A stretch of 44,673 bases of DNA from Catajapyx aquilonaris (GCA_000934665.2 JYFJ02003247.1:1-44673); one strand, 5' to 3'. Shown: positions 4,078 to 44,673, counted from the stretch's first letter. A program made the numbers and translations. Notes: generated from the letters alone by a model not told the origin.

Positions 4078-7000
4078 CTGTGGTAATTTAAAAAATCAAT
4101 ACCTTGCTGTATGTTTTCTTCTTCTTTGTGCACAACATTCAAACTTCATCCTACCCTACTTAATGTGCATTGAAATTCCTATTGGTCAGAGAACTTATTT
4201 ACTCTATCTTACACAAGGCTTTAGGATAGTCCAAAACGACATGAAACTATAAGTGCCGACTTGGGAACCTACACCCATGCATACGTACCGGGGCATTTTG
4301 ACAAAAAACAAACCATGTTCGTCTGATCAAGATATGGAACTTGAATCAAATTACAGTCCTGACAATAGGAATTGCAACACTGAATTGTTAATCTGACCTT
4401 CACCAGTCTATTTTCTACATTTTTACATTTCTTGTGGCAGAATAAGGGCCATGATATGCCCTCACTCTTTTGTTGATGCATACCTCTGAAGCTTGCCACC
4501 GATTAGGTATAGATGGCCTCTGCTGATCCATACACACAACCTTTCTCATCTCCTCTATTGTAGGATCATTGGGAACCAGGTCATAAAAGGGAAGCTGATA
4601 ATCCTCATAGATGCCTGGAAATAGAGGTTGTAATTAATGTAATACACTGAGAAGAGACAGGATGCCTAAACCACTTTACCTCCCATATTGCACCTCCTGG
4701 CAATCTCCCAAAAGACGAGGCCAAGCGCATACACATCTGCTCTCTTGAATGAATCAAAATGAGTCATGTTCATGGTGTCATCCAGCACCTACAGGAGTAA
4801 CAAATACCATAGAAATACCTTGGTGTGTGGAAAATGCAGAAAAGTACTACACCAGTAAAGGGTACTTACCTCTGGAGCCATGTATCTCTTTGTTCCTACT
4901 CGGTTGTTGAGAGGAATGTCAACCGTGTCACTGGCTGCATCATATCTAACAGCGAGTCCCAGATCCCCAATAGCACATGTGCCATTGCTCCTGACTAATA
5001 TGTTCTTGGACTTGAGGTCCCTGTGAGCAATGGCTGGTTTGCCCTGAGTACCCACTATCTCCATATGCAGATGAGATAAGCCAGTTGCAATGGACAGGGC
5101 CATGCGAACCAAGCCTCCTGAGTCCACAGTGCAACGGTTCAGATAGTCAAAGAGGGACCCATTCTCATGGTAATCAGTGATAAGCCACAGTTGTGTCCAT
5201 GTTCCATTGTCTGAAAATAGCCACACCTCGTGAAAAGGACCTTCAACTTTTTGAACATACACACAATACCATCAGCCATATTATGCCACAGAGCTTATTA
5301 CTGCGTAAAATCATAACCACACACCTTTGTTGTCAGCTGCAATGAATCCAAGAATGTTATCATGCCTCAGCATGACGGTCTGGTAGATCTCAGCCTCCCT
5401 GAACCAGGACCTCTCTTCCCTGGAGGAGAATATCTTGACGGCAACATTCTCTCCCCTCCATCTTCCTCTCCACACCTCTCCAAATCTCCCCTTCCCAATG
5501 ATCTCAACCAGCTGAATCTGCCGTGCAATGCTACGCTGAACCAGTAGGGGAAGCCCAACTGACATTCCCAAAATGAAAAATTGCGATTATCTCAGGAAAA
5601 TTACTGTGAGTGACAGCTCTTTTCCAGCTTGAGCTATTACTCACCTGAACCTGATCCACTGGTGGTCATCTCAATCAAGTCTTTAATGGACTGCCCGCCA
5701 AGTATGGGATGATCTGGTGCTTCTATAGAATCCTCTGATCGTGAGTGATGCCGGTAGGCAGACGAGGATGGATGCTTCTGATGCCATCTAGTTAGGAGGA
5801 ACACGATGGCCATGCCCAGGACACAAATTGGTACTGCTATAATGAGTGCCAGCTCCCATGTCCCGAAGGATATTCCTTCGCCTAGACTGCCTTGGGCTTC
5901 TGTGTATAAGGAAGGACCACAAGCACACTATCACTTTCAATTCATATCATTTGAAATGTGCAGCCAAGGTATTTACTTTCTTTTAATTATTAAATAGCTA
6001 CACACAGGAGTAAGCCAGTGCCAGCATGTCAGCATAGAATGCCTCCATGTAATATATAAATTATCTGAAAATCCAGGTGTGACAAATGCAATCCAACGCA
6101 ACGTTAACATCCCTTAATCCCCCCAACAAACTCCAGTATATCTGGATAGCTGCATGAGTTCTAGGACCCTAATTCTTCACATTACTGGATGGTGCTATCT
6201 AATATTTATATTATGTCTCACAGAGTCAAAATAGTGTCTGTCTAGTTAGCATAATTTACTCTCCAAGTAGAAAAACTGGCAACTTTTCATGTTCAACTTG
6301 GTGCACTCTGATCTCTATGCATCCATTTAAGCACTGTTGTCTATTTTTTTTTGTCAACAAGTCATGACAGCTAGAGAAGTTGAAAATGTTTCAACATCCA
6401 GAGGCCTGATAACAAGTTCACTTATCAAAAAACTCCCAAGGCTGCACTGTTATCTAAATGTTGTAGTACTAATCATTCACAATGACGCCCACATACGTTA
6501 GCACATATTTCAAGACTATAACTTGGAAATGAATATAACTAAAACTGTACTTTGTACCACACACAAACACACATTACACACAAGTGCTACATATTTGTCA
6601 TTTACTTATGGTTGCTCAAATGTTTATGAATTTGGTACTCAATGTATACCTCTGTGTTTACAAAAAATCCACTTCCTAGGAATGAATATAAAGACATGAA
6701 AAAATATCCAAATATTTCATTTGCACAACCAGTGACATATTTAGTAATAAACCCATGCCATCAGCTTAGTTGGGCTAGAAATATACAGTTGCTGTTTTGT
6801 TAACCAAGCAAAAGGAGAGAAAAAAGGTCATAATTGTGCATCTTAACAATTCATCACAGCACTGCAACCACAAACCGGCATGCAGAAAAGGTGGAGAAAA
6901 GTTGGAAGAAGAGAAAGGTGTGTTTGGGAAATGGTGGAACAGGATGAACTGTAAATGTACTTCCAGCCAATATAAATAAATCCACCAACCTGACACCCTG

Positions 7001-10000
7001 AATAATAGTTGGCATGGACTTCGCCAACACACGGTTGTTAATTAACACACACTGGGGGAAATCATACCTGGTGTTACGTCCAATACTGCCTATCCATGAA
7101 CATAAAAGTCTAATCAGGATTTGGTTTCATCTCTGACAAATAACCACAAGAATGACACACACACAACTTAGTGTTTCATGGTAAATTGATCCCATGCATT
7201 TGCTCTACACCACATAACACACCCCAGCATTTCCAATTACTTACTGTAGCAACCCCAATTTGTGACATCTAGCAATCCAGTGTCAGAAAAACAGCATTGT
7301 AACTTAGCAATCACCTTGCCAAACTTTTCCTTGGACATCATTCCCAGCCATACATATGCTTCCAATTTTATTCCATTTCCACAAAGAGCATCATTTTTGC
7401 ACTGGGTCAGATTACACTGGGGCAAAACCTTAACTTACAAAACTTGTATGAAATATTAACTGTCTCCATTATCATTCTGCTTCAAAAAGGGCATCAAATG
7501 CAAACAACCAAACTGTACACCTTGGCATTTTGGAAACATATCTTGAAGCTGGGACAATTAGTTTGAATTTAAAAAATATCTCATTTGCAGAGATGGGTGT
7601 TGTTCAGCCACACCATACCCACCCCACTCCTGGTCCCTTGCAAATTAAAAAAATATCCAGTTCTGAAGCACCTGACCAAATGCGACTTTCAAGGCATGAT
7701 TGTTATTGTTGAGATTTTCCAGTCAGTGAAATTGTTGACCCTACAACAATGCATACACAAGCTGCATATGACTTTCAAAAAATGCTAGGCTGCTACGCCC
7801 GTACAAGCTTTGCTCACAAATAACATGGGTACATTTTAAAATAAGTTCACACTAATTACAGGTAAAACTCCATGAATCTGATTACTCCAAAAAATTAATA
7901 CATCTAGGCATTGTTGTAACTGCTTCAAGCCCCATCTGATGCCCGTAACTGACTGCCCAAACTAACCCTGACATTTCGGGTAAGCCCTTGTGCATTTACT
8001 CAACAAGGCATGCATCATTAATGCCCCACAAAAATATGAAACACCCAACATGTACTGTATCCCACTGTTTCAACAATCGAGTAGTAAAAATGACTGAATA
8101 ATAATAATTTTGTATTTAGCCCTAGATATGTACGGGATTACAAAAATGCACATGGTGGCTTTTTCGCCTTTGCCCAACGGGTTCAAGCACAGTAGTAGTA
8201 ACAATACATAAAGACCTGCTCACCTGCCAGTTGAGTAATAGGCTGCTCTGGAGAGCTACAGGTGGGTTTCAAATCGAGGTTACAAAAATCGCGGTCATTG
8301 CAGCAGAGGATGCTGTCACATTCCTTTGCATCTGCACTGTATGATACGGTTTTACACCACAGAGGGTTATCAGGTGGAAAGAGCGCTTTCTTATGGAAAC
8401 ACCTACAAGAAACCAAAGGCAAGTACAAAAAAAAATAAGTCTTGTTAGCTCCTAAAAATGGAGGCATTTGTTAGCAGCACAACTGAAAAATAAAGTGGAA
8501 ATGTGTAAGGCCTCGCAAGTATCCACCGTGAACAAGTGTTTCAAGGAATGCTGTAGGAGTAGGTAGTGCTTAGGAAGATATCAGAAAGCTAGAGAAAATA
8601 TTCAAGATAATTAACACAATGTATGGTCTAGAAATGAAATAATAAACAATCGAAAATTGCAATCTCAGTCTCTGCTAATCCAAGTCTCACAGTGACTTCT
8701 CATTGTCAAGATAAAAACTTGATCCTCACAAGTCCTTTTAAAATGTGATTAGTGATCATTCCCCGATACAGCTCAATGTATCACACTCAATTACTGACTC
8801 TATCAATTCACTAACACAGTGAGCACAGTCTGTACTCACAAGCAGTCTGCATGGTGCCATTTTTGGCCTTGCAGAACCCAATACAGCAAAACCCTCAAAA
8901 TGCTAATGCTGAAAGCGTAGTCCTTACTGCACAGAAGTAATCAGCATGTGAGGTTCAATGTGAAACTTGTCTGGGACAACCCCCTAGTTCATGCGCCAAG
9001 AATAAACACCATTACCTTCCACAGATATAGAAAAAAGGAGATAAAAAAATGAAAAGAAAAGCATAAGCAATACAAGCAAAAGCAAAAGCAGATGAGATTA
9101 ATATTGTTGCCAAAAAATTCCTGGTGGACTTCCTCGATGAAGGACTGATGAAGGAGTGGAGGACAACCTACCTTTGAGAGGGCGAATATGGAGAACTGGT
9201 TTCAGATTTCGGTTACACATGTCGTGGTTCTTGCAACACTCTATGACAAACGTCTCATTAAGTGCATTGGCATAATGACACAAGATGGGGTTCTCAGGGG
9301 GGTAGAGCAACATCTTGTCCAGGCACCTGCCACGCAAAGACACACAAGACACGAGGCTCCATTAGAAAAACACTGCTGCATGCAAGTATCACATATGTCT
9401 ATAGAGATGACAACCCCCCTCGTTATGGGCTGCTAGGGTGGGAGTTAGCCAGCCTTACACATCCCTTCCGAAACACTGTCGGAATGAGTTGGATGTACCG
9501 TCAGGGGCAATGTTGGGAATGATGTTTAGCACAACTTGGTAGTTGCACTACAAATATGTGATGGGTGTAGGATATACAGATCTTAGCAATTTACATCTAA
9601 CTACAAAACTCTTGCATATGAGTACAATTTCATCCTGAGTTAGTCAAACACCATCATTCGGAAGCAAAAACACACTCCAACGTAGTTAGTGGGGGGTATT
9701 GGGGAAACCACAAATGGACTCTGCTTGCTCATGTCTGGTGCCCAGCCTAGCCAAAAAATTGGCTACAGAACATAATTGAAACACAATCCACTATGTAAAG
9801 TGGAGCATCAATCTGTAGAACAACATGCATCTAACAGTTGCTGGCACCAACATGAGATCAAGTCCATTCCTGGCCTTACCTGTCAGGGGTGTAGTCGAGG
9901 GTGTGGCCAATGTGGGGCGCAGATGGATGTTGCAGAAATCAAAATTCCTGCAGCACTCAATGGCAAAGTATTGCTCCCAAAGGGGGGAGCTAGCAGTACA

Positions 10001-13000
10001 CCCCTTGGACTCCACAGGGGGGAACACTTTTTTCTTGTCCAGACACCTTTGGAGTACATGAAAAAGCTCTTTTTTTCTATCCCCATAACTCACTTCTTCC
10101 CTACTTCAAGTTCATTGACAGGGGGGAGGGGAAACACTGCTGAACTGACAAGGTTTCTAGAAAAAGAGCGGGTCAGAAATTCCACTGCAGCTGTATAATG
10201 AACATCCTGCCAACTAAATGTAACCTCCATTCCCAGCTATTTTTAACTACAAAATAGCACCACATGGAATTGTGGAGCTAAACTCAAGGAGGTAACACAC
10301 AAAATGCATGTGGCAGTGTTCCATGTTAATGTCTTGCAGTCACCTTGACCTGTTGCAAAATTCTTCTCTCATATAAGATTATCTTTATAGCATTTCAGTT
10401 TGTGGTATAGTCTCAGACAGCAAAATTCCTTCATATTTTTCTCACATAGACCTGAAAAATTCTTCAACTCGGAATATCCCAACATGCCCAGCCATCCTTC
10501 TTGAGCAGCCAGAAGGGAATTTAACTGGCTAAATCCCACTCCCAGCCCCTTACAATAAACTGACTTTTTGTCAAATGTTATCATTTCTTGGAATACCCAC
10601 AAATATGTATTTTCCTGCACACAAACGTTCACCCACAGGCCCCCACAATTCTGGCATTGGTTGATATAACATCAGCAGTGCAGGCACACAACAGTGACTC
10701 TCTACATTCCCCAGATACTGCCACCTACACTACTAACAATAATTATGTACAGTACTACTTGTACTAACAATAGTTAATATAATCTGTTAACTACAAAAGC
10801 ATCCTAATATACAAAACACCTTCACAAATCCCTCAAGTACTTTCCGGTGAGACAGAAATTCCAGTTTGTTATGAACACCACATATTGCACCTTGATAACT
10901 TAGGCTACATGCAGAGTTTTTCCATACACTTGCACTCCTGCTAAGACTACTGGACTACATGCAACTCACATGGGTTAGGTTGCTGGTGTACAGACATTAA
11001 GAGACACAATTGTCTACTATACAGCAACAATAATAAGGTAAAGGGGGTAACCACTTTGGTACTCCGGTGTACACTTGCAGTGGCACTCCAAGGTACTCCT
11101 TAGGTACCTTACTCTTTGGTACTCCTTGGTACTCCTTGAATTTGGTACTCCAGTGTACACTTTTCAGTTGAGTGGTTAACCCCTTGAACAAGGGTGAAGT
11201 ATTCTACAATGACTACCCCACATACAGCAGCATGCTGGTAAAAGCAACTTGACGGATTTTTTTTTTTTTTTTAAGTACAGATATGGTGGCTCTAATGGCA
11301 TGCCAGTATAAGTTGGACAGGCACCAATTTGCCAGTGTATGTCTGACATGAGATATGCCAGTGTTATTACAAGGTAGTAAATTGAATATGCTGTCAATTC
11401 AAGAAATTACTTTAGTCCTATTGCCACAAATAATTAAAAAATCAAGACTATCTTGTTAAGGCCCATACACACAGGCGGTCGACGGTTTCGGTCTTTGGTC
11501 GCGTTGACTCAGCGGACCAATCAACAAGCGCAACACAAGTGTTGAGTTTGTTTACATGAGTCATGATTGGTCCGCGGCGTCAACGCGACCAAAGACCAAA
11601 ACCGTCGACCGCCTGTGTGTATGGGCCTTTACTGTAAGAGTCATGTGTCCAATTGATTTGTGAATCTCAGGTTAAAAATAAAACGGATAATTTCCTAATC
11701 CTTAGAAAACATCCCATTAAGGCCTGTTTCCAAAGAAGCTTCAGCTTGAAAACATGCGCCCTGGCGCTCACTCTAGCTCCAGCTGCAACGCGTTTCTAGC
11801 GCTGGGTCGATATTTCAGCTCTCCTATTCAGCTTGCTTTGAACATCGAGCATGAGACGATATCCAAGCTGGAGCTGGAGCCTAGATAGCCTTACTGACCA
11901 ATCCGACGCGGCTCCTGGGGTCACGTGGGACCATCTCGGTGGGGAGGTGGCTAGGGGTGGGGCGATGACGCGAGGTGGGGAGGCCAGGACATAGTGAGGA
12001 AGGAGAGAGGAGAAAAAAAAATGACCTGTCGAAGGTCACGGAAGGAGCTGCTCGGGCTGAGGGCCCTGCCGATGCAGGGAGAGACAGACTGATTAGCAAC
12101 CTCAAAAGAGTGACCTTTAGCCTGAAGAGCAATCTCCTCCTCTCCGATGTGATCGCCGTCTTGGTTTTCACAAGGTGGCATGAGCTGGAAAGCCAAAGCT
12201 TCTTTGGAAACCGGTCTGAGGGCGCTAGCTGTGAAGCACCGGCTAAGGTGAGCTCCAGAGCTCACTTCTTCAAGCTGAAGCTTCTTTGGAAACGGGCCTT
12301 TACACTGATATGCTAACAAGCCCCGAGGTATTCCAGCTCAGTGATCCACTAAATTATACACTGGCACACAATTATGTGAGTAGTAATGCATATAAACACC
12401 AGGAATTGGCTCTCTGGTGAGGCAGGAAGCAGCTAACAATTATTCAGACCGTTACTTCTCACTAAAGCAGGTAAATTTATTTGTAGTGGAGACTGATAAA
12501 TGTGTAAACTACCTGTGCTCCTAGGCATTACAAGACTCAGAGCAATGCACAAAAGGGTTTTAAACATCATTATTTCAGTACTACTCTTCCAAAAAATTAA
12601 ATAAATAAATCCTGTGTTCTGCAGGAAATACCATCAACCACGAAGACAATCTGTAAGCTGATGTTATACAACCAAATTTTCAAATATGAAGAAGTAAATC
12701 CTCCACCACTATGTTACCTGTACGAATGATGTATCACCCCTGTGTCCTTCTGCATGGAGGTAGATGTAAAGCAATACCCATCAGTTTCACAGGTGTGATT
12801 TGAGTCTTCACACATGTCACAGTGGCACTTCAGGCCTGGTGGGTAGAGAGAGAAAAAGTGTTATGTGAACCATGTACACAAACTCTAGAACATTATTCAT
12901 ATTTAAAAATATGTGCAAGACCATCACATGGAGGCCAGGAAGGTACAGTCCTGAGCATAAAATTGGAGATGCTGCAGGCCTTCTCTGACCTCCCATTATC

Positions 13001-15192
13001 CGACTCAAATTAATGGACTCTTTTTGGACCCAGTTAGCTGCCGTACGCGTGTGTCCGTGTATTTATAACTGTAAGTTATATTTGATATCGTAATGGTGGG
13101 GATTGACAGAGCACCCAGCCAAAGGGGAGGGCCTGCCGTCTCCAACGTTATGCTCAGGGCTGTATATTTGTTCATAGTGACCATAGCCATATCTGAAAAA
13201 TACTTATATCAAAACTCTGTCAAAGCACATATGCATAAAGAATTTGCAGTTACCCCTTGTTACCTAGGCACAGGTGTTGGCTGCAGATGCCAAAATTCAA
13301 TGACAACCTTGAACATGTTGCAAAGGAACAAAATAGTTCTTAATATTGGCAGGTGCATTTTGTTTGCCAAATTTTTTTCTCCCGCACAAACACAAAGTAG
13401 TTGAAGCTACTGTTATGTTGACATGAGCTTGGTTGCAGTTCTAGAAAAAAATAATAATGCATACATTTCCATATTTAAAATGGCATAGCATGAAACAGCC
13501 AAAAAGTCAGGCGACTGACATAGGACAAACATGATTATTTTAATATCGTTGTTTAGCATAAAACCTTAGAATAACATGTAACAATGTCTAATATTGGTTT
13601 CATCTTCATAACCAAACCATTTGTCCAGCTACATTTGCACCTTTTCTACATAACGTGGCAAATAAAATTTTTCACTTTAGGTCTCCTGCCTACTTAATGC
13701 ACTGGCCTGGTTGGCTATATTTACATCCACTGAGATTGTTTCGTTTCAAGGTCTCTCGAACGTACAACTTCACAAAGCCTTCACGTATATAATTATTGGA
13801 ATGTGACTTCAATGAGCCATCAAGTTATTTGTTGTAGCTCTTCTTATTTTACTCAATAATGATGCTGATGATTCGACCAGGGAGCATATACTACATAAGA
13901 GGCGCAAACATTCGATTTTTTTCGTCTCTCTGTTTATGGCGTTGTCAAGGCTGGCGGCCATCTTGAAGTGTGTGGTATGTCAACGAGGTGTAAATAGGGT
14001 ACAGGCAGGCCGTCAAGGTCCGCGGGGTCCGCCATCTTTGATGGTTTGGGCTGCCATGGCAATACACGGCAACAACAATTTACTTACCCATTTTCCAATA
14101 TCGAATTCAAATTCGCGCGTGTTATTGCCGTGTATTGCCATGGCTGCCAAAACCATCAAAGATGGCGGACCTTATTTTTGCCTGTACCCTATTTATACCT
14201 CGTTGGCATCCCACACAGGTCAAGATGGCCGCCGGCCTTAGTAACGCCCTATAAACAGAGAGACGCTAACAACAATGGCCTGACAGAAATTTGCGCCTCT
14301 TATGTAGTATATGCTCCCTGATTCGACCCTATGCCAGGTGCCTTTTTGTGGCAACCAACTCAAGATATATTGAAACTCTAATTTTAGTATCACCACCGTC
14401 ACAGGCCACACCTCAATGACTTTTTGAAAGAGCTTCACTTTCGAACATAACTCGTTTTTTGTTCCCTCACTGAACCAAATGCACAGGCTTTTGCCCTTCA
14501 CATGCACCAGTCAGTTACCAGTCAAGGTTCCAGGGTTCTCCTATTCCGATATATGAGACATGAATGTGCAGCTCTCATTTCCAGCTGATTATGGCTCTTC
14601 CTATTTGGTGTAGCTGTACAACAAAAGCCTCCTTAAGTGCCTGCGCAAACTATTACCTTCGACTAAGCCTACAGGGTGGTGCATTGCCCAAATCCCCACC
14701 TCAAAACAGGTGCAGGCAAAAAAGTTATGGGCTGTTAACTCTCAGAAACCAGTTTAAAGAGAAGGAGACTGCAAGAAAAATACTCAGGGCCACATCCCAT
14801 CCTTACTACTTGTATTACTACATTTCTGGAGCAAACCATCTATAACTGTATATCATTTGGGGGGGGGNGGGGGGGCACGAAGTGGCAGTGCGGTAACACG
14901 CGCCCACGGATGGAAGGGTCCCTGGTTCGATACCAAGCATGGCCATTCCCCCCTTTCATCTGGTGCGGAGTTCGGGGTCGTCTCCGGCTTCGTCTAGGGT
15001 GGGATTTCCAATAGACGAACAACCCGGGGGAGCTCACAAAATGACCATATCACCGACATTGCACTGCACACTGCACATCCCCTCCCAGTCACCCTGCCCT
15101 TAGACCAGGGCTCTTCGCTGTCAAACTAAATGTATACGTTGACAAAATAAAGGTCTGTGCCAAGACCTCATCTGAGGTACGACACTATACCC

Positions 15193-15266
<74 letters not shown>

Positions 15267-18200
15267 CATTAGGGGGCATTTGAGATCAGCATGTCTGGTT
15301 TCCAAAAAATAGCATGTTAACTGGCGAGCACTTCCCAAGAGAGAGAAAACACTAGTTTGAGACACATTACATGACAGGTAAAACTAATTATTTATACAAC
15401 TGCATCTACACATCTACGAGGGCTGTAAATAAAATAGTGGCAACTACATCTCTACAAATCAGTGAAATGTAGGAAGTTTTACACTGCTCATGCCACAGAT
15501 AGGTTGGGTCTTGATCTAACCTAAGGACATAATGGGATCGTCCCACCTCAATATGCGCATACACAGTAAAAAGTATAATGTGAGCTGTTGCGATCACGGG
15601 TCTAAAGGCGATGTTTTCCAAATTTGAGCAAAGGCGCTGGTTAAAAATTTTCAATTTGTCATGAAGGGCTTTTACAGGCTTGTGGGAAACATGCATTTCC
15701 ACATAGAAAGGTTGCAAGGTGGACAAAAGCCTTCCGTCAGAGAAGGCAAAAAGTGGCAAAAAAGGAAATGCAAGTAAAGAACAAGTAGCTGCTGTTTCAT
15801 GGAGAACGATCAGAGGTAGACAGTTAGTGAGTTAGCCAGTGAGACGTACTTGTCGACTATGACTATCTATCCTGACCATTCTTAAGAAACGTGTGAGTAT
15901 GACTATCCCAGACCTTCTTGGCGCTTTAGACCGTTCTATACGAAACATCAACCAAACCAGTGCTGCCAATGGTATCCTTCGACTTCCACATCGCTAAAGA
16001 TGGGTGTTACATAATGTTGGTGACTACATTGAAGGACTTTGAAAATCTGAAGTTGCCATGTACGTATTTCCAGTCCCAAGTTATTAAATAGTTGCCATTA
16101 TTTTATTTACAGCCCTTGTACATAAATGAGTAAGTTTGTTCGTGGCTTCTCTATAGAAATCCAGAGGAATGTTCCTACAACGTCTTAAACTAGCATTCCA
16201 GGGGTTACTTTTTTCGAGAAATTAAATGGCGCATGTTTCAGCTTCCGATGAGCCATTCTCCCACGACACTCTGTACCTCCTCCCCTTGAACTATCATTCC
16301 ACAACAATATCAACAATAAATTGTATTTTTTTGAGGTCATATCCATGGAAACTTGAAAAGTGAGAATTTCCCGAGGTGCATTATCAGCGATATCGGGTGT
16401 CCGCTTTCTGCGTATTTCTCCATCAAATGCCTTCAAAGAAGCGTTACACTTTTGGACAATCTCCTGCTGCACAGAGGGAACAACACAACAAGGGCTTTAC
16501 ATTTCTACATTTATCTAAACTGACTTTGCAACATGTGCAACAAATTTGGCTCTGGAATCATCAAGAATTGCTGCAATAATTGAAGCGTATGGTGCAAGAA
16601 GGGGGTAAGTCAATTTTTGATTGGCGTTCATTTAATGGGTAGACTGTATATTGATAAAAACTTGCCGGATCGTTTGGTACAAGAACAGGAATCATCGCCC
16701 TGTGCAGGGTGACACCCTTCTGCCCTTCACACGTAATGACAAACTTTGGCTTATTGTTTTCAATTAGCCTACTACGCAATGACCAGTTTTAAGGGCTCCG
16801 AATACCTATGTGATTTTTCAGAATCGCGTCCTAAGTTTGGCCGAGTCACGGGCGCAGCGTTCTCTTTGCACCGCTGACGCAGGCATCTCGCTGGAGGTAC
16901 GGACCTGAAATTTTCACAGAATGGTGAGGAAAGCCCAATTGAGCCCCCGACTGAGTTTTGATCCATTAGAATAATAATTACGAGATCTACAAGGGGAAGA
17001 GTTTTCGAAAATAAGCTCACGACATCTTGGCTCCGGATTCGAATTTGGAAAAGATCTCGAAGTTGCGCGATGGCAAAGTTGTCCTCTCTTACTCCTCCAA
17101 AGTGCGATTAATTTGGGCTATTGGTTTTTGCACAGCCATTAAAAAGGTTTCACCTCATCTCGTAAAATCGGAGGTAGTACTTCCGAAATAGAACAGTTGG
17201 TTCCCTGTTGCCCACACGCTTTTTAAATATTTAGCCCGAACCAGTTCCCTGGCAACCTGGACAGGGAACCAACTGTTCCAGGTTCGAAAGTTCTCCGCCG
17301 ATTTTACGAGGTGAGGTGGTGAAACCGTTTTAATAGGTGTGAAAAAACCAATAGCCCAAATTAATCATGCTTTGGAGGAGTAAGAGAGGACAACTTTTGC
17401 CATCACACAACTTAAGAGATATTTTCCAAATTCCAATCCGTAGCCATTTTTCAAAATCTCTTCCCCTTGTAGATCTCGCAATTATCATTCTAATTGATCA
17501 AAATTCCATCGGGGGCTCAATTGGCCCTTCCTCGCCATGATGTGAAAATTTCAGGTCCGTACCTCCAGCGAGACGCCCGCATCAGCGGTGCAAAGAGAAC
17601 GCTGCACCCGTGACTCGGCCACACTTGGAACACGCTTCTGAAAAATCGCATACGTATCCCGCACCCGTAAGGCATATCAAATGTACATGGAATGCGAATT
17701 TTATAAACAAATAAGATTCCTAATAATAATACACACATGGATACACCGACCACTACAACATACCCGGGCAACGCAGAGTAACCTGCTAGTGTTTAATAAT
17801 GTAGTTCGCAGCAGCACTGGCAAAAATGTCATTTACACCCAACGTCCTGCTGGCATCCAGGAAGAATGGAAGGTTTTGCTAAGAGGTTGCATGAGGAGAG
17901 TGCATGTTCAGTTATTCTGACATGCTAAAATTTGCCAGGCTCAGGAATACCAGCTCTACACAAAGAGGGTCCATCACATTTTTACAGATACAGATGTAAG
18001 GTCAATAATTAGAAAATGTAACAATGCACAGTATTCAATAATGAAATCTGTGAAGCAATTTGCACAGCACCAAGGAATCTCAACCAGGTCCACTCTCTAT
18101 TTGGTTTGCTAAAGTGCATTCACAACATGAATTTGTACTGGTCCTTCCCCCTACTAGTTGTATGGTGCCTGGATATAACTGACAAGCACTTGACACAAAT

Positions 18201-26022: not shown

Positions 26023-26480
26023 TCAGACCGTGGTCTCACTCCTCCTCCCTCCGCTCCCAGCCCCAACTCCAGCCCCAGCAACTGGAGCTAGTCCCACACC
26101 TGCTCCTGTACCCCCAGCCCCACTCACACTTACCCCTCCTGCAGGCTTGAGGGGCTGCAGTTCCCTCTGTAGGCGGTCAAGATCATTGTAATACTCATGA
26201 TCTGATTCCTCCTCAGATGACCTTTGAGGGGTTAACTGCTGTGGATGGTGCTGTGGAGGTTGCAGGTGGTGCTGAGGATGCAGGTTGTGGAAGTGCACCT
26301 GGGGTTGGTGTTGCTGGTGCTGCGGATGTGGTGGATGTGGCTGAGACTGCCTGCCACCACCACTGCCTTGGTTCATTATGTGGTACTCTGGGTTGTCCAT
26401 AATGGTAGCAGAGCGATTGGCATTTATTGGAAGGAAGTCAGGGTAGCTACCAAAGGTGCCTCCATTACGGAAATCTGCAT
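26023..26480 (-). CDS. Egfr: Egfr terminal coding exon
   Basis: MDNPEY, His/Gln/Pro-rich stretch, SDHEYYNDL, ends ...RRSETTV*. Confidence 0.93.
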
Positions 26481-29400
26481 CTGAAAGCGGAAATGTTACA
26501 TTAGCACCGGTACTTGAATATCTTCAAATTTCAAGCAAAGTCAAAGTAATCATGTAACTGGTAATGAAACATGCATATGAGAAGCACGTGTCATTTAAAA
26601 ATGTGCTATTTCACTTCAACTTTTCTAATAAAATCTCTTTGTTATATGTAACTTACCAGCAGATTTGGAGTCCCCAATGAGATCCATGTAAGCTGAGGAG
26701 TTGGACGGCACTTGCTGCGGTGATGGCATCAGATAGTCATCGTCATCTAGAGGAAGATCCAGTTTCAAGCCTCCCACCATGGCTTCTCTTTTCAGGGCTG
26801 GATCATAACTTTCATCTGATGTGTCTGGGGGCAAGTCAGGCAAATCTTTCCCACATGTTCCGAAAAAAACATGCTCTATCAAAGGTGCACTTCAAGGAAA
26901 TAACCATGCAGGAAGAAATTTGCCCAACCACCACCACTTTCGCAAATACTCACCTCTTCCAACCATCTTGAGCGGGTCGCTGCAATACCTCGATGAGCCA
27001 TCATGAGTGTGGATGGAACCTGTGGGAGTCCCTCGACCGGCTTCTAGATGTGCATAGCGCCTTTCCCTGTTCCAGTTGTGCATGTTCTGGGGTGACTCTC
27101 CAGATGTGAATGCCCCAGGGCCACCAATTGGCGCACTGGGGATCCCCAGACCTGCCATCCCCAAGTCCTTGTTTGGAGTGCAAGGTGGTGAGCTTGAACT
27201 GGTGGTCGTATTTGTTATTTGAGGAACATTCGATCCCCGTGGTTGCAGGTACTCTTCAGCATCCATCAGCACTCCAGGTCCATCCATAGCTGACGAAAGG
27301 TTGCGGATAAGCTCCTTCTCATCCTAAAAGGTGAGAAAAAATTGAAGTTACATTATTGTTTGCAAAAGGTGATTACAGATTTCAATATGTATTGCACAAG
27401 TGCTTCAGAGTGATCATTTTTTAGGTGAAATACTGATAACAACATACACTTACTTGAGGTGTATACGAAGGAAGACGCATGAGTTGATCCCATTCGATGC
27501 AGAGATAGCGGGCAGGATCACGAGCCATCTTGGCAAACTCATCAGCCAGTTCTCGGAATGAGGGTCGACTCTCTGCATCCAACATCCAACACTTCACCAT
27601 CAACATGTAAACCTCAATTGTAGCAATCGTGGGCTGCTCAAGCCTCTCTCCTTTTTCAAGAAGATCAGGAACATCCCGAGCAACCACAGTGTCATATGGT
27701 CGCTTTCCATATGTCAGAAGCTCCCAAACAGTGACACCTGAAAATAAAGCCCATATTAGATCACCTTATGTAAGAGAAGACGAAAGCAAAATCTTGACGT
27801 GCAAAAGGTCATTCATTCTTTTCATAATAACTGACAAGTGGTGACTGCAAGGGTACATGAGCCAAAAAATTGAAGGAACCTTACCAAAGGCCCACACGTC
27901 GCTCTTATGGGTGAAAACCCGATGCTGAATACACTCCAATGCCAACCACTTGATGGGCATCTTCCCTCCAGCAGCCTTGTATGCATCTTCATCAATGTCA
28001 AGAAGCTTTGCTAGCCCAAAGTCAGTGATCTTAACGCAATTGGGATTTTGCACCAAGACATTTCTGGCAGCCAAGTCACGATGGACCAATCGCCTTTCTT
28101 CTAAGTATGCCATTCCTGAGAAATTAATTCATCAGTATAGAGAGTTTGCTAATGATGCAAGTAAATAAAATTATGTACAGTATTCCCTGCCTTTACTCGT
28201 ACAATTAGGGCTCGTGCAAATGGATGGACTCCACAAATTATGAAATAAATCATATGAATGCACAAATTACTTCATTTACCTTTCGCAATCTGGGTGCACC
28301 AATTTAGCAGAGGTTTGGACCCAATCTTGTTCTTGTTGTTCTTCACATAATCAAGGAGGCATCCTAATGGCATCAGTTGAGTCACAAGCATCATCTCTGA
28401 AGTCATGCACACTGCCAAAAGTTGGAGCAAGTTTGGATGCTCTACTGATGCCATGATGTACGCTTCTTCTAGAAACTCCTTGCTAATATTGGCCTCTGTT
28501 CGTTCCCTTAGTACCTTGATGGCCACCGGTATCTTCACATTCTCGCCTTCAGGAATCCATACTCCTTTATGGACTGTGCCAAAAGCACCATTTCCAAGGA
28601 ATCCACCACGTCGTAGCTCAGCTTCCTTAACTATCCTCAACTTCGCTAGGTTGGGCTTCATGTTGGTTGGACGGAGTGGCTCTGAGTCTTCATAACCACT
28701 CATCACCATGGTCATCTTGACAGTGTTTTCTTTGGCACGTGCCCTCTGCCGCCAGTGGTATCCAAACAGAGCCAGAAATATGCCAAGAAGGCAGACACAG
28801 CCAAAGACACCTCCAATTATGGCAGCCACTTGGTCATCCTCTCCTCTGAAATTCAGATATGTACTTATTGAATTCAAAGCAAGATGGACATTACTATTAG
28901 GAAATCAGGACGCAGCCAATGCAGCCCTGCAGCTCCTCTTTCCTAGTTTATTCGCTACATTCAATTCTACAAAATGCAAATAATCAAGCTGCAACAAGTC
29001 CATCATCAATCAGTCAACCATCACCAGTCATAAGTGAACCATCAGCCATCAATCTGCCCAGTGGTATCCAAACAGAGCCAGAAATATGCCAAGAAGAAAG
29101 ATACCTCCAATCATGGCAGCCACTTGGTCATCATCTCCTCTGAAATTCAGATGTACTTATTGAACTCAAAGCGAGATGGACATTACTATTAGGGAATCAA
29201 GCTGACCCAGCCAATGCAGCCATGCAGCTCCTCCTTCCTAGTTTATTCACAAAATTCAACTTGACAACGTACAAAATAATAATCAAGCTGCAACAACAAG
29301 TCCATAAGCAATCAGTCAACCTTCATTGGTCATAACTGAACCATCAGCCGTCAATCTGCCCCGTCATCAGTATACCATGCCCCACGAGGTACCGTATTTA

Positions 29401-32400
29401 CCAAGCTCAGTATGTTATGCTCCCGGGAAAGACCCTATTTCAGGCTTTGACGCATTGGGATGGACATTAATGTATGGAAATTGAGAGAATGATCTGATGT
29501 CATCACGGTTTCCATGGAAATACCATCACAGAACAATACGAGTAAACAGTGTCAACAAAAAGCAACAATGGAAGAAATGATGACGTCATATCGTTCTCTC
29601 GTTTTCCATACATTACAGTGTTGTTAGTTTTATTCTCCATGTTTGGATCACAATTTGGATAATACTTAGGTGGCACAAAGGCAAGAAAAAAGTTGAATCA
29701 CCCAAGCTAATAACACACCTCCCTCATGTTAGGACAGTAAACGTGCTTACAAATGCTTCTTTCCTTAATGAAATGGTGTGCCACCAAACAGAAACGATAG
29801 TCATTGCACAAGCTTTCATACTTACACACTCATTCTGCTGACAGCAGGTTCCTTGGCACAGTATGGGTCAGTGTGTTCTTCAGGAAGGATCTTGTGTGGA
29901 TATTCTGCTGGGCAGGCTGCAGTGCAGTTGAACTCATTGTTGTCATCCCTTTCACCTCCATCCTATTAGAGGTAGAGAGAATGTTATGCATCGGTTGTTA
30001 CCCTGATTGATGGAGGCAAGTTGTTCATAAATGCGCAAGACTTTACTTGTATCAGTTTGCCTACGTGAGGCAGATATGAGCATTTGGCAGAAAAGCACTA
30101 CAATTGTCTGACCTAATGTGCGGACAGTCCATAATTTCCTTACCATGTAGATGCGGTAGTTGCGGCATGAGACACATTGGTGTGGCATTGGACCATGACA
30201 CTCTCTGCACTCAGGGTGGCAAGGAAGACATTCATGAGAATCCTCATCCGCATAGTGCTCTCGAGGGCATTCATCTTCACACTGCTCTCCTCTTCGATAA
30301 CGAGCACACTCTTGGCACACCTGAACATGGAACCCATATGCAATGCAGCGCTTGCATCTTGGGTGGCATCGGCGGCAGATGGGCTTTCCTGCTAGGGCCT
30401 TTCGACTGCCTTGCTCCTGAGGCCCCATGTATTCAGGGTAGTAACCGTCTGGACAGTGCTCATCTTTCTTCAAGCAGCGCTGTGGGAGAAAAAACAGCCT
30501 CCTTTAGTTGAATATTTACCCTTACGAATCATCTGTGCTCTATTACGAGTACGTATTAGTGCTGTATTACGTAAGTTACATTTCTTACAAAATCAAGTAA
30601 CACAATCAATTGTGTGCATATATTCAGTGATAACACTATTTTCTATTGAAACACAAGGCATCTACCTTAATGCAATGTCTCACTGCTATTCATTTTAACT
30701 GGTAAGATAATTGAAATTAGTTAGCTAAAATTTTATCGTTCAAAATAATGACCACGACTACTTTCATTGGACCCAATGACAATGTGGGGATTTTGCATTT
30801 TCAGACTGTAATAAAATTAAAATGGAAAATATTACCTCAACAACATCTCCATTGATGACAGCTTTCTCACATGAGTTGCATCCATCTGGCCCAACAGTGT
30901 TCTTGGGACCTTTGCACCCTTCAATGCAGTTTTCATGGCAAGGAAGACATTCACCGGCACTGCCATACTTGGTGATGGGACATTCCGCTACACAGAAAGG
31001 TCCGTCACGAACTTGGCGGCAGTGGGTGCATTTGCCAGGACCTGGGCCAGAACATGTTCCATTGCACTGGTGGTGGCAATGCTTGCAAATGCCTGGCTCT
31101 GCTTCATAAATTCTGAGGAGGAAAAGCAGCATATTGATAATGCACAGCTATTTATGAACTGGGTGCAAATTCAAGACAGGTAGGTACCCTGGTGTCTGAT
31201 TGCAACTCTGCACACAATGATCCACAAGCTTGTATCTTGCACAAGAGAGACATTCATCTGTGTTGGGTCCCCAGCATCCTTCAGTGGAGCACTGATCACT
31301 GCAGACTTTCCCTTGTGACTGACAAACTCCAGGATCCTGGTTGCTACGGATAAGAGTGTTGTGCTGGTAGGACCTAACAATTCGGGTCCAATTGATGCTG
31401 TCAGCAAAGCACAGGTTCTTATTCTCCAGAATGGACACTGCTCCAGAGCTTATCTTGTGCAAGGACCGGAGGTTTAGAGATTCCAAGGAAGTCTTCACAA
31501 TGTACAGGGCTGAGGAATATTCTGCATTGGTGCGGCCTCCAATAACCTCCAGATTCCTGCAACATCAAAAGTGTGTCATAAACACTAGAAATAAAACATT
31601 TCATACAAATACGCACCGAAAATAGGATAAGTTCTTAAAATCTGCATGAAATCCCTGTATGTCCAAGTGCCCAGTGATTTCCTTCAGTGTGCTAAAAACT
31701 TCCAAACGATCTGGATGCATCTTGGGATACCTCGGCCCAAAGGAGAAGTCAGAGTGGATGTGAAGGTAGCCGTCAAATGTGGTGTCCAAGATGGTGAGAG
31801 AGCCTTCAATTATGGTGCAGTCTTTGAAGCTGATGATGTTCTCAGAGTTGAGCTGAGAGACTCCTTGGCATGTCTTGGGGCATGGCCCATCACATGGCAC
31901 ACACTCTCCATTCATAGCCTAAATAATATGTCAATTGGTTTGTAAATATTTGTGAAATAACAATAAAATGAATAGACATTCTCACCTTTTTCTTGGGAGG
32001 GCACACCCGGACACAGGCACCATTGTCCTTCAGCAAATGATCTGGACAAGTCTTGACACAAGTGGCCCCATATGCATATTTTCCTTCCGGATTTGTCTCC
32101 CAAGAGTATGTGGTTGGATTGTACTTTTGCATTGCAGGGCATTCCTGCTTGCACACACCATCATCATAGAAGTTTCGGCATGCAAGGCAATCACTCTGCT
32201 TGGGTCCCTTGCAACCACCAGCACAGAATAAATGACAGCACTCCCGAGGATTTGGTCCAAAACAGCGCCCTTGGTAGCACTGAGGGCTGCAGTTGATTTT
32301 GGAAAATTTTTGGCAGTTCTCAGGCCCTTCGCCCCAGCACCCAGCTTCGCAGCTCTCGTTGCATGCAGGACACTCCCGCTCCGATTCCGTAAAATTGTAC

Positions 32401-35400
32401 CTGTACGTGTACCGTGCACCTGGTCCGGTTATAATCTCATCCCAGTTGATTGTCTTTATGTGGCAGAGATTATAGTTGTTGTAGATTCCAACACTGCCAA
32501 CCAGTATATCTGAAAGAGGAGTAATATCTGCATGTCACGACTAGTAATCCCACAAATTATCTCTAAATGCATTTACGCAAATGAAGAATTCACGTAATAA
32601 GTAATAACATTGTACCAGAATAAAGCAGTCCTATTGCAAAATGTAGCATTTAGTAATGTTATGAGAAGACAAGATTGCAGTTTATTTCATCAACAGCGAT
32701 AGCTTACTTATGCAATTTCTTTTTAAATACAAATACTCCTAAATGTACTGAATGGACAAGGATAGGAGCAAGAAAGGAGGTTGCAAGATTGATGGTAAAC
32801 CCAGGATTAATTACTTGGTCTTGGTTTACCATCAAGCAGCCGTGAATGTAAAGTAGACTTACCCCTGAGTGATGGTAACTCTAGGCTGTGCATTTTGGAC
32901 ATGGTAACCATAAGAGCAAATTCCTCCTCCTGCACACTGACCCTAAAAAGGGTCCTCCCCCGAATTATCTGCAGCCTGGGAAGAATAATCCGCTTCACAT
33001 CTACATGAGATATGAGCACGTATCCGGTCACCTGCATAGAGACATATCAATTAAGTCTCTTATCGACTAGGCAACAAAGAAAGAACGGATCAATTGAAGC
33101 CCCCTGTACACAAAACACACCTCCCGGATGAATTGCAGGAAAGAGAGATCAATGTTCTCATCTCGAAGCCACGTAAGCTCCAGGTTGCCGTCCACGTAGG
33201 TGCAGTTGCTGTACCTCTCCAAGAGATTACGGTAGTGGTTGTCCCTGTTGGACGGCACTGACATGCGGTCATTGGTTCCGATGCAAACTGCAATAAAAGA
33301 GAATACCATTGTTCAAAAACTATACACTTATTTTTTGTATTTATTTACTCCCCCAAAGAACACCACATCAACAACAACAGCAGCAAAGCCCCTATCGGCG
33401 AATAAGCCGGACGCATGATGCAGGATCAGGTTAGGTAGCATTCCAGAATTTGGAACCTGCCTCCGTGCACTTACAGCACACTCACACCTGACTTTTTACT
33501 CTCGCGACAAAAATAATGGCACGTTCAAATGGCCACGCCGGACTTTCACTCCAGAATACCGAAGGCGGCAAAGTAAAGCCTTGACCAACTTGGCCTCTAT
33601 CTACCTTTTGTCTCAACATATCCAAAGCAGGGCCATCGAGACATATTTAAAAATGTGACCATATTTTTTTACCATTAAAAAATATGGTGCTCATGCACAT
33701 GTTACATGTTGAACGTAACTTTCAACATTTGACCTAAAGAAGAGAAGAAGGTGCGCCCTCCCACCTGCTTGCTTTGCTTCCAAAGAGAGGCGGAGTGCGG
33801 ATGCTGTTGCCAGGACAGCACCACCCATTAAATAAGTGGGCTAAATGTTTCTGGGCTGGAAGTACGGTGGGAGTTAAGGGTCACGGGAGATGCATGTGTG
33901 GGAGGAGGGGCTTCCAAGTATTGGCGTGAATAAGCTGGCCATAGGGGCTGCTGAAGATGATGGCAGGCGCCAAGAACCGGCCAAAAGCTGGCTGGCGTAA
34001 GAGGACTTCCTCTCGAGAAAGGTATATGGATGAAAATTACCCGCCAGTCTATAATTTGCTCTCCGGGAGGCGAGAGATTAATTTTTTTTTATGCGTCACG
34101 ATTTTGGCTCAAGCGATGTGCATCATTAAGTATGCATGTGCACCACGCAACTCATGCATGAGGGATCACCGTCAACGCCATCAAACTTATTGACTCCTGG
34201 AATGCCAGGTCAACCACTGGAAACACATAACTTATCCGCAACCACTTTCAGCAAGACGGAAAATAAAACGACCTCTGTCACAACCACAAAGACCTTGAGT
34301 AGTGAGCAAAAGCTTCTATATATTTTTTTTCTTCATCTTTCCGCGCCTTCTCTTCAAAGACGTGGCAACCATGACGCGGATATCCATAGAAAATTTTAAT
34401 TTTACATGCGGCGGAGTTGCCTTCCACTTGCAATAAATTCGGCACGACCGCAGCAGAGTAAAGCATTTGTCAAACTTTCCTGCATTTCCTCGTACTCGCC
34501 CTTCACCTACGCAAATACTAGGATTTCTAAACGCGTCCTACGTACGCACACAGATGAAGACTCCAACGCATGAATGAGCCTGCCTCTTCCAAGGATTTCT
34601 AAGTGTACACACTAACAGCCTATAATGTGATCCAGTACCGTTAGAATCTTCTGATATACACCTTACCCCCGAGTTGAAAGTTTCCTTTGAAAACTGGGCA
34701 TAAAAAGGTCCTATATCATCTTCCCTAGGGATCCCCCCCTGAGAAGAAAGGCTTTCTGAGGACAAAAAAGAAAGGTTATGAAATGGAGCAAGGAAGAGGT
34801 TAGGCGGGTCTGCTTCTGGTCTTGTTGAGCAAAAGAAGAAGAGGGGGCACATCTTTTTATCGTCACCGAAAATCTTGGCCGGAGCAGGAGCTGGAAGGTG
34901 CGGACACCGATTCCTATCCCAGCTAGAGGCCCCAGCTGCACACCGTTGGGGGGTTCTCCAAGGACTACCACTCACTGGCCCTCAGTTAGGTAAAAAGCGC
35001 CCTCAGGATATCCACCTCCTTCATATAGGCCCTGTTTACTATGATCATGCAGCAAGTACACACAACTCTCAGCACGGAGCCCACAGCCACCCTTTCTCCT
35101 TACAGCAATAAATCGCGGCTGATCCTGTAAGTGATGAGCTTCTTCGCGCTTTTTCTGCACCCATTTGTGGTCAGCCACAGAGTAAATGCAAGGACACCTC
35201 TTTTTGTCACAACCGTGTGGATTATAAGCATTCCGGAAATTATGACCGTATAGAAATGCACAACCGGCGATTCTAATGGATCAGACGCATTACTTGGAGA
35301 GAGCCCATTAGTTTACCCTCTCACTAAATTCTAACAAGTTGCAAAAGACAGCACGAGGGCCCGGGCAATATGTCTAATCCTCCCCTGCCAGCTACTTTTC

Positions 35401-43700: not shown

Positions 43701-44549
43701 GGTGATCCCCTCCTCCATTCGCGACCCCAAAACATGCTCAGGACACGCTCCACTGACAAGGTTGCCTCCTGCTGCCTTCTTACAAGTCTCCCAACCCTCA
43801 AACTTCGAGGGCCACTTCAGCCCTGCCTTTTCTTCACGAAATTTCGCTAAAATCTTGGTCGGCCATCACTTTGGCTCGACAATGTTACCCCCTTCCTTCG
43901 ATCACACACCCACACACCCGTACCAAAAATGCAGCCTCGGGCCACTAATTACAGCGGGCAACCTTGGCCAGCGACTGAAGTCATTCTCATAAACCTGCGT
44001 CCACGTACATAAATTATGAAGTGGTATGGAGGGGGAAGGGGGCAGTAAACAGCTGAGGAGGCCTTCTCCTTGGTCCACGATCTCGTGCCCTTCTCTGCCG
44101 CCATTAACTTCTCCACCACGCCCACCCACTTTTTAGTAAAATAAAAATAACAAAAAATAAACGGAGCATCGAATCTCTCTATCGGGAGATGCCATTTTGC
44201 AGACTTGTCGGCGCAACGGTACAGAATGGTGGCGACATTACACGTGTCAACGGACAACGAACCTGTGACCAAGGAGGTATATAAAAAAAAGGAAAGATGC
44301 CCGGATGGGAGGCGCCTTCTAGAAGACGCGATCAGCGTGCTTCCCCTTCACCTCACCACAGTCCTCTTTAATGGGCCTTCCATCAATCCCTAAGTGACAA
44401 TCACATCGCTAAAGAAGTAAGCAAATCAGATCCGCATGTTAGTAAAATTAAGAAGCTTTCTGGGGCTTTGAGGCGTTGTAAATCAAGCAGTGTGAATTAG
44501 GACGTGGTCAAGCCTCCCCAACACCACACCTCCCCTTCAAAAGATTCTT

Positions 44550-44597
44550 GAAGAAGAAGAAGAAGAAGAAGAAGAAGAAGAAGAAGAAGAAGAAGAA
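44550..44597 (+). repeat. (GAA)16 microsatellite
   Basis: Perfect trinucleotide run. Confidence 0.95.
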
Positions 44598-44673
44598 GGG
44601 GAGATGACCCCCTGCGAGCCAAGCAGTGCATGCTTCAAGATCACGGAGAGGCCATTGCAGAGTGCTGGACGGT

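Follow-up and report, generated by a model that had tools for sequence, protein, structure and literature searches.

Can a small duplication within a receptor gene convert part of its output, in one step, into a receptor that binds ligand and cannot signal? This question is raised by a 44,673-base stretch of DNA from Catajapyx aquilonaris (GCA_000934665.2, JYFJ02003247.1:1-44673; hereafter the window), which carries an Egfr-type gene on its minus strand. The intron that precedes the exon for the transmembrane (TM) segment and the start of the kinase domain contains a second copy of the beginning of that exon, together with its splice acceptor. An earlier note, made from the sequence alone, had proposed that splicing to this copy generates a kinase-less isoform composed of the receptor ectodomain and a TM anchor. 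Here we find that the duplicated acceptor is used in vivo and that the copy is an alternative exon, and we weigh what may become of its RNA and protein.

The duplicated acceptor is joined to the last ectodomain exon in RNA

Five public sequencing runs bear on this locus. Four are of the DNA type and come from one sample (S1/P1), while the fifth, X5, is of another sample from another study (S2/P2). The kind of X5 is unrecorded and we read it as RNA from its spliced contigs, which were mapped on positions 27400-30600. Its four joints (4/4) all lie at GT..AG borders on the minus strand and match the exon limits derived from homology, and none of these joints is found in contigs of DNA runs X1, X2 and X4 (0 contigs each). 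Thus, X5 behaves as RNA.

One X5 contig, contig 26 (810 nt, 0 differences), joins position 29826 exactly to 29139, with at least 136 nt on the shorter side of the joint. Starting in an upstream exon, the contig crosses 30481-30143 and then 29961-29826 before it enters 29139-28972, and its loose end maps to 30954-30983. The earlier note had predicted the 29826 to 29139 junction and set it beforehand as the first test of its proposal; this junction is present and the contig continues through the predicted stop codon. Indeed, it holds all three copy-specific substitutions, a copy-specific 12-nt deletion and the stop, beyond which it has a further 77 nt of 3′ sequence specific to the copy. Exon bases 7 and 28 both distinguish the joint formed with the copy from that formed with the real exon, so that no 31-base word bridges the canonical mRNA to the unspliced copy, and contig 26 is not a chimera of the two. 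The duplicated acceptor is therefore used, and an mRNA carrying an ectodomain and TM reading frame exists.

Contig 26 is unspliced for 77 nt past the stop and ends, with no tail, at 28972. The second contig mapped here, contig 25 (3372 nt), carries the kinase exons and starts at 28780, within a 39-nt stretch that the copy and the original share (see below). Neither of these two X5 contigs covers 28781-28971 or contains the canonical 29826>28845 joint, an absence that is not informative as to read-through, a 3′ end or the ratio of isoforms. The contigs report presence only, neither the transcript share nor the ends of the RNA being readable from them, and their depths of 8.39 and 22.3 are whole-contig means that were not used to rank isoforms.

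A tandem duplication of the intron end and exon start

Tandem Repeats Finder identified a repeat at 28803-29361 with a period of 302, 1.9 copies, 85% matches and a score of 830, the only repeat scoring at least 150 in the whole window. It takes in ~600 nt of the 980-nt intron between the last ectodomain exon and the TM/kinase exon, plus the start of the latter. Gapped alignment of the upstream, derived unit A (29372-29058) with the original unit B (29066-28752) showed 79 identical bases out of 82 aligned, plus one 12-nt gap, in the exon part, and 197 of 216 identical, with 22 gap columns, in the intron part; the units differ by 9% substitutions plus several indels. The ~300-bp tandem duplication described in the earlier note was thus reproduced by both methods, with every one of its coordinates correct.

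Both copies are present in DNA contigs of X1, X2 and X4 with 0 differences, and copy-specific DNA has a depth of 25-36 compared to 29-34 in the flanks, the level of a single-copy sequence. X1, X2 and X4 derive from one sample, possibly the source of the assembly, and hence are not independent of it. The copy-specific sequence is also found, again with 0 differences, in the X5 contig from the other sample and study.

A stretch of 39 nt, CTTCTTGGC...CCACTGG, is identical in the two units (28752-28790 and 29058-29096). DNA and RNA contigs all start or end at this stretch, where it breaks each short-read graph, and short-read transcript assemblies of the gene will hence be prone to splits or mis-joins there. 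A 23-nt match had hinted at a third, older copy further upstream; this candidate was rejected, as its local alignment scores of 24-26 lie inside the shuffle range (maxima 31-33), and the match overlaps the end of an element resembling a miniature inverted-repeat transposable element (MITE). The MITE-like element (29468-29615) lies in the same intron as the duplication and has 48-nt inverted arms that are 81% complementary and 52 nt apart. The summed depth of the DNA runs over it (two bins) is 4,859-16,954 versus ~30 in its flanks, and short contigs and loose ends are numerous there. The element is thus a member of a family with a very high copy number.

The new exon and its encoded tail

The exon part of the copy begins at 29139 and that of the original at 28845, and both acceptors read ...CTGAATTTCAG followed by AGGAGA, which bears out the claim of a second intact acceptor. 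A branch-point-like CTAAT, which we take to match the branch-site consensus, is retained ~50 nt upstream of the acceptor in both units. Translation across the 29826 to 29139 joint reproduced the in-frame reading that had been put forward, including its stop at 29051-29049. The joined frame retains the ligand-binding ectodomain and ends ahead of the kinase, 29 codons past the joint; its TGA falls three codons beyond the point where the copy ceases to match the real exon, that is, the duplication breakpoint.

The frame-preserving 12-nt deletion was likewise recovered. It leaves a hydrophobic run of 20 residues, within the ~19-20 first estimated, versus 24 in the real receptor, and the Kyte-Doolittle mean over 19 residues is 2.47 for the copy compared to 2.67 for the real TM. 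Past this run the tail comprises two residues, the C-terminal letters being HWAD. Thus, only two residues follow the hydrophobic stretch before the protein ends, and just ahead of it lies a candidate small-residue triplet, S-V-G, followed by DDDQ. As a rule of thumb, a signal for a glycosylphosphatidylinositol (GPI) anchor has a C-terminal hydrophobic tail that lacks a cytoplasmic extension and is preceded by a short polar spacer and a cleavage site made up of small residues. Because of this arrangement of its tail, the product might be processed to a GPI anchor.

A sequence scan confirmed the AATAAA noted ~97 nt after the stop (28952-28947), which is the only AATAAA or ATTAAA from the stop to the real acceptor. 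A matching hexamer is present in unit A at 29247-29242; the hexamer therefore predates the duplication and was already in the ancestral intron. By eye, there is no good donor between 29049 and 28846. A cassette form or an in-frame rescue through a donor-like GAG/GTATCT within the copy was considered and rejected, as splicing there would insert 35 nt and throw the message out of frame, and the contig continues unspliced across this site. The coordinates of the features are collected in Table 1.

Table 1 Features of the Egfr-type gene and of the duplicated region in the window.
Feature	Position	Strand	Evidence
Acceptor (CAG) of the copy	29142-29140	-	used in X5 contig 26
New exon, coding part (1 base finishing Val, 29 codons, TGA 29051-29049)	29049..29139	-	
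New exon stretch seen in RNA, 168 nt, 0 differences	28972..29139	-	X5 contig 26
AATAAA, candidate polyadenylation signal, 97 nt past the stop	28952-28947	-	
Unit A, upstream derived copy (~225 nt of intron 3′ end and exon-start copy)	29058..29364	-	
Unit B, original (intron 3′ end and 94 nt at the start of the real TM exon)	28752..29062	-	
Last ectodomain exon, final codon split (2 bases)	29826..29962	-	tblastn to Daphnia magna EGFR 766-798; X5 joints 29961/30143 and 29139/29826
Donor GTAAGT of the last ectodomain exon	29825-29820	-	
Real TM/kinase exon, 566 nt	28280..28845	-	Pfam PF07714; X5 contig 25 over 28279-28780
Egfr-type gene, located part	26023..33312	-	Daphnia magna EGFR tblastn and Pfam

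The host gene is a crustacean-type EGFR

Residues 38-1527 of Daphnia magna EGFR align in order along the gene (tblastn), with identities of 55-83% over the ectodomain, TM and kinase N-lobe exons and 34.5% over the C-tail; the first ~37 residues were not located in the window. Pfam searches with the exon translations matched furin-like (PF00757, E 2.3e-20), GF_recep_IV (PF14843, E 2.1e-08) and tyrosine kinase (PF07714, E 4.7e-28 and 4.2e-17) domains. The L domain exon (57 aa) gave no Pfam match alone and is 81% identical to Daphnia EGFR. The domain order is L domain, furin-like, GF_recep_IV, TM, kinase and a C-tail with a terminal ETTV. The real TM/kinase exon encodes the extracellular juxtamembrane region, the 24-residue TM, the stop-transfer sequence RQRARAK, the cytoplasmic juxtamembrane region and the kinase N-lobe. 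The TM and juxtamembrane region is 71-79% identical to crustacean and spider EGFRs.

The search of the protein collection found no protein from the same species or a close relative, the best matches being 68-70% for the domain IV exon and 76-79% for the TM/juxtamembrane region. The nearest proteins in it (68-79% identical) are from Daphnia, Tigriopus, Artemia and a spider, along with unnamed transcriptome proteins. On the basis of the three Pfam domains and the identity to Daphnia magna EGFR, the host gene is an EGFR/ErbB-type receptor tyrosine kinase (RTK) of the crustacean type.

Elsewhere in the window, a second tyrosine-kinase-like coding stretch on the minus strand (4927-5550) is 25-26% identical to the Daphnia and Tigriopus EGFR kinase domains (tblastn, E ~1e-9), and probably belongs to a separate kinase gene that lies downstream of Egfr. 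The window has a single N, at 14868, and its long homopolymer or simple-repeat runs (15150-15300 and 44500-44673) show up as poly-L/I/Y and poly-E open frames.

Divergence of the copy and the case against a working product

Several observations weigh against a truncated receptor that is made and retained for its function. The first concern the copy itself. Its frame-preserving deletion and conservative substitutions had been offered as hints of constraint, and this part of the earlier proposal finds no support in the comparison. All three substitutions (E>D, I>M and V>I) change the amino acid. The exon part of the copy differs from the original at 3/82 sites and the intron part at 19/216 (Fisher p = 0.21); in 82 nt, 7.2 differences would be expected if both units drift freely and 3.6 if selection freezes the real exon while the copy drifts, compared to the 3 observed.

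To the neutral count is added the loss of conserved residues. The TM was compared with 22 relatives, namely the best 20 of 48 matches and 2 decapod proteins out of 22 matches, of which two were dropped, one without the anchor motif and one starting inside the TM (n = 20). All 20 relatives keep the four TM residues deleted in the copy (G-C in 18, G-M in 2), and at the site of the M in the copy all 20 carry I, while the V/I site has 9 V, 9 I and 2 T. It was therefore in the copy that both the deletion and the I>M change arose. By contrast, V>I and E>D cannot be polarized because these sites vary among the relatives. The 12-nt deletion also takes out a glycine of the GGxxG spacing. Small-xxx-small motifs in ErbB TM helices serve dimerization, and TM pairing of the truncated product may be weakened. 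In addition, the basic stop-transfer sequence of the real receptor, RQRARAK, is missing from the tail of the copy, which makes it uncertain, as judged from the predicted tail, whether the product would be anchored or pass quality control in the endoplasmic reticulum (ER).

The remaining points concern the RNA and the relatives. The joint is supported by one contig of one run of unrecorded kind, and the contig evidence comes without abundance or a 3′ end. A search for short isoforms covered arthropod proteins of <844 aa (120 of 131 matches listed), of which a motif filter took 40; with P0009 and P0032 added, this gave 42 proteins that are without kinase motifs. In this weak search, no clear natural ectodomain and TM form was present among the 42 kinase-less short proteins in the matches listed.

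About half of these 42 proteins stop a few residues past the motif CRN(Y/F)K(I/V)(Y/F), where the counterpart of the 30481-30144 exon ends, having read into an apparent intron; the rest consist of fragments and of gene models that were split. The proteins ending at this motif may be open reading frame calls on genomic contigs, or may come from intron-retaining RNAs for soluble ectodomains.

Taken on their own terms, the changes in the copy fit neutral drift and show no sign of selective retention; with so few sites, weak constraint is still compatible with them. The copy is a real, expressed and probably young truncating exon. The proposal of a kinase-less ectodomain and TM isoform thus stands in one respect, as an mRNA with the predicted open reading frame exists, but the conservation hints that accompanied it are not upheld.

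A model for the origin and fate of the truncated transcript

The explanation that best accounts for these data is a ~300-bp, lineage-specific duplication that gave rise to an mRNA, and from it a protein, for a truncated, membrane-held receptor; taken as a whole, we consider its chances evenly poised. In this model, a tandem duplication copied the last ~225 nt of the Egfr intron along with 94 nt from the start of the TM/kinase exon, and the copy landed upstream of the original within the same intron, where its near-identical acceptor is the first that the spliceosome meets. The transcript would then end after the AATAAA located 97 nt past the stop, making the copy an alternative last exon, and the mRNA would escape decay and be translated. 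The predicted product, of ~825-835 residues, would contain the whole ligand-binding ectodomain, the 20-residue hydrophobic anchor and the two-residue tail, and could be tethered in the membrane, GPI-anchored or caught by ER quality control. Once membrane-held, by analogy with EGFR.DN, TrkB-T1 and DAF-2B, the ectodomain should bind ligand and form non-signaling pairs with the full-length receptor. Whatever the fate of the protein, every transcript spliced to the copy would cost one full-length mRNA.

A decoy role for the truncated receptor is plausible. The product may have an inhibitory effect without having evolved as a regulator, being instead a side product that is young and tolerated. The strongest form of the idea, the one-step birth of an endogenous dominant-negative EGFR, held by a shortened TM or a GPI anchor and acting as a tissue- or stage-specific brake, we regard as unlikely.

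The rival that survives best, and which we hold to be quite possible while short of probable, is that splicing to the copy is a tolerated by-product, its RNA or protein being lost to read-through decay or ER degradation, with either no net effect or a slight drop in Egfr output, and no decoy. The neutral level of divergence, the uniformly non-synonymous substitutions and the deletion of TM residues that 20/20 relatives conserve are what such a by-product would be expected to show; moreover, a frame of 29 codons stays open without selection, the breakpoint itself supplied the stop, and the weak search found no relative with such an isoform. Yet the joint-bearing contig is an ordinary piece of multi-exon mRNA (810 nt, 0 differences), the polyadenylation signal is suitably placed and the anchor is still strongly hydrophobic. 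A product that is translated would hardly be inert, since an ectodomain and TM form of EGFR inhibits in flies, according to the accessible part of the source (PMC2877733).

A second rival places the effect at the level of RNA only. The copy would be a poison exon or attenuator, splicing to which, with or without early polyadenylation, cuts the amount of full-length Egfr, and read-through forms would undergo nonsense-mediated decay. The stop does lie >200 nt upstream of the real exon start, and two near-identical competing acceptors would provide a simple titration of output. What makes this reading improbable is that no good donor for a cassette exon was seen by eye in 29049-28846 and that the contig continues unspliced for 77 nt beyond the stop; no downstream splice occurs in the 168 nt of the new exon seen in RNA, the remaining 126 nt to the real exon being uncovered. 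Furthermore, if the AATAAA is used, the stop would lie in the last exon and the mRNA would be no obvious target of decay.

Finally, an artefact, either a duplication created by assembly error or a mis-assembled joint contig, is very improbable even though X1, X2 and X4 share the sample that may have yielded the assembly, as the units differ by 9% substitutions and several indels, unlike a collapsed or duplicated haplotype, copy-specific DNA is at single-copy depth, the copy recurs in a contig of an unrelated sample and the words spanning the joint are copy-specific.

Significance and comparison with known truncated receptors

Kinase-less receptor isoforms are a known means of damping growth-factor signaling. 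In the literature consulted, the natural kinase-less EGFR forms that are described are soluble, and the membrane-held one is a laboratory tool; the Catajapyx transcript has the design of that tool. One small duplication supplied the acceptor, the anchor and the stop, and the old intron gave the candidate polyadenylation signal. Should the protein be made, the locus would show how one mutation can be enough to bring forth a negative regulator of a core pathway, and would test whether a TM helix short of one conserved glycine spacing pairs with the full receptor. Should it not be made, the locus would still be a clear illustration of a duplicated splice site that is tolerated although it draws off transcripts of an essential gene. 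Were the product to act as a brake on signaling, it would, as far as the literature was searched, be the first case in an arthropod of a natural EGFR that lacks the kinase and is held at the membrane, and a clean example of a new signaling regulator arising from partial exon duplication. A natural membrane-tethered, kinase-less EGFR of a crustacean or insect was not found in that literature, most subscription journals being outside its coverage.

Tandem exon duplication is a source of alternative splicing, as in mutually exclusive exons. The Catajapyx locus is similar in that a local tandem duplication yields a second, competing splice site. However, only the first 94 nt of the 566-nt exon were copied, with no donor, and the copy therefore cannot replace the exon and instead ends the reading frame.

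The engineered EGFR.DN and the mammalian cytoplasmic-deletion EGFRs consist of the ectodomain and TM with the cytoplasmic part removed. The Catajapyx product would be alike in this general make-up, but EGFR.DN is a laboratory construct with the native TM, whereas here the transcript is natural and the predicted TM is four residues shorter. Transgenic dominant-negative EGFR serves as an inhibitor in flies, as described in the portion of the source available (PMC2877733). TrkB-T1, for its part, dimerizes with full-length TrkB and serves as a ligand sink, according to the available part of PMC5591008. TrkB-T1 and TrkC-T1 are natural, membrane-tethered forms with ectodomain and TM and no kinase, as would be the product here, and they work as dominant-negative partners and sinks for ligand. 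TrkB-T1 differs in its short, specific intracellular tail from a dedicated, conserved exon; the Catajapyx product is predicted to have a two-residue tail and a shortened copy of the TM.

Among invertebrates, a parallel is offered by DAF-2B, a truncated form of the insulin receptor in C. elegans, which modulates signaling by sequestering ligand (PMC7041946, accessible part). As far as that part of the source describes it, DAF-2B is likewise a non-signaling isoform of an invertebrate RTK, made via an alternative exon with intronic sequence, a stop and a likely intronic polyadenylation site. Unlike the predicted Catajapyx product, it is secreted, has no TM and was not born of an exon duplication.

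Members of the truncated RTK class include sFlt-1 and the PDGFRα decoy. Truncated RTK isoforms arising from intronic polyadenylation or alternative last exons are a known class (Vorlova 2011 and Mueller 2016, as cited in the accessible part of PMC7041946), and the known soluble EGFR isoforms consist of the ectodomain only (PMC3356382, accessible part). The Catajapyx transcript resembles this class in that an upstream ectodomain exon is joined to an intronic exon with its own stop and AATAAA, such that ligand binding would be retained and the kinase is absent. It differs from the soluble EGFR isoforms, which are without an anchor, in retaining a hydrophobic one, and from the class as a whole in that its terminal exon is a duplicate of the start and acceptor of the next exon rather than ordinary intron, polyadenylation being a candidate only. 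What is novel compared to the known class is thus that the anchor is kept, that the terminal exon duplicates the start of the exon that follows it, and that its origin can be traced back to one mutational event.

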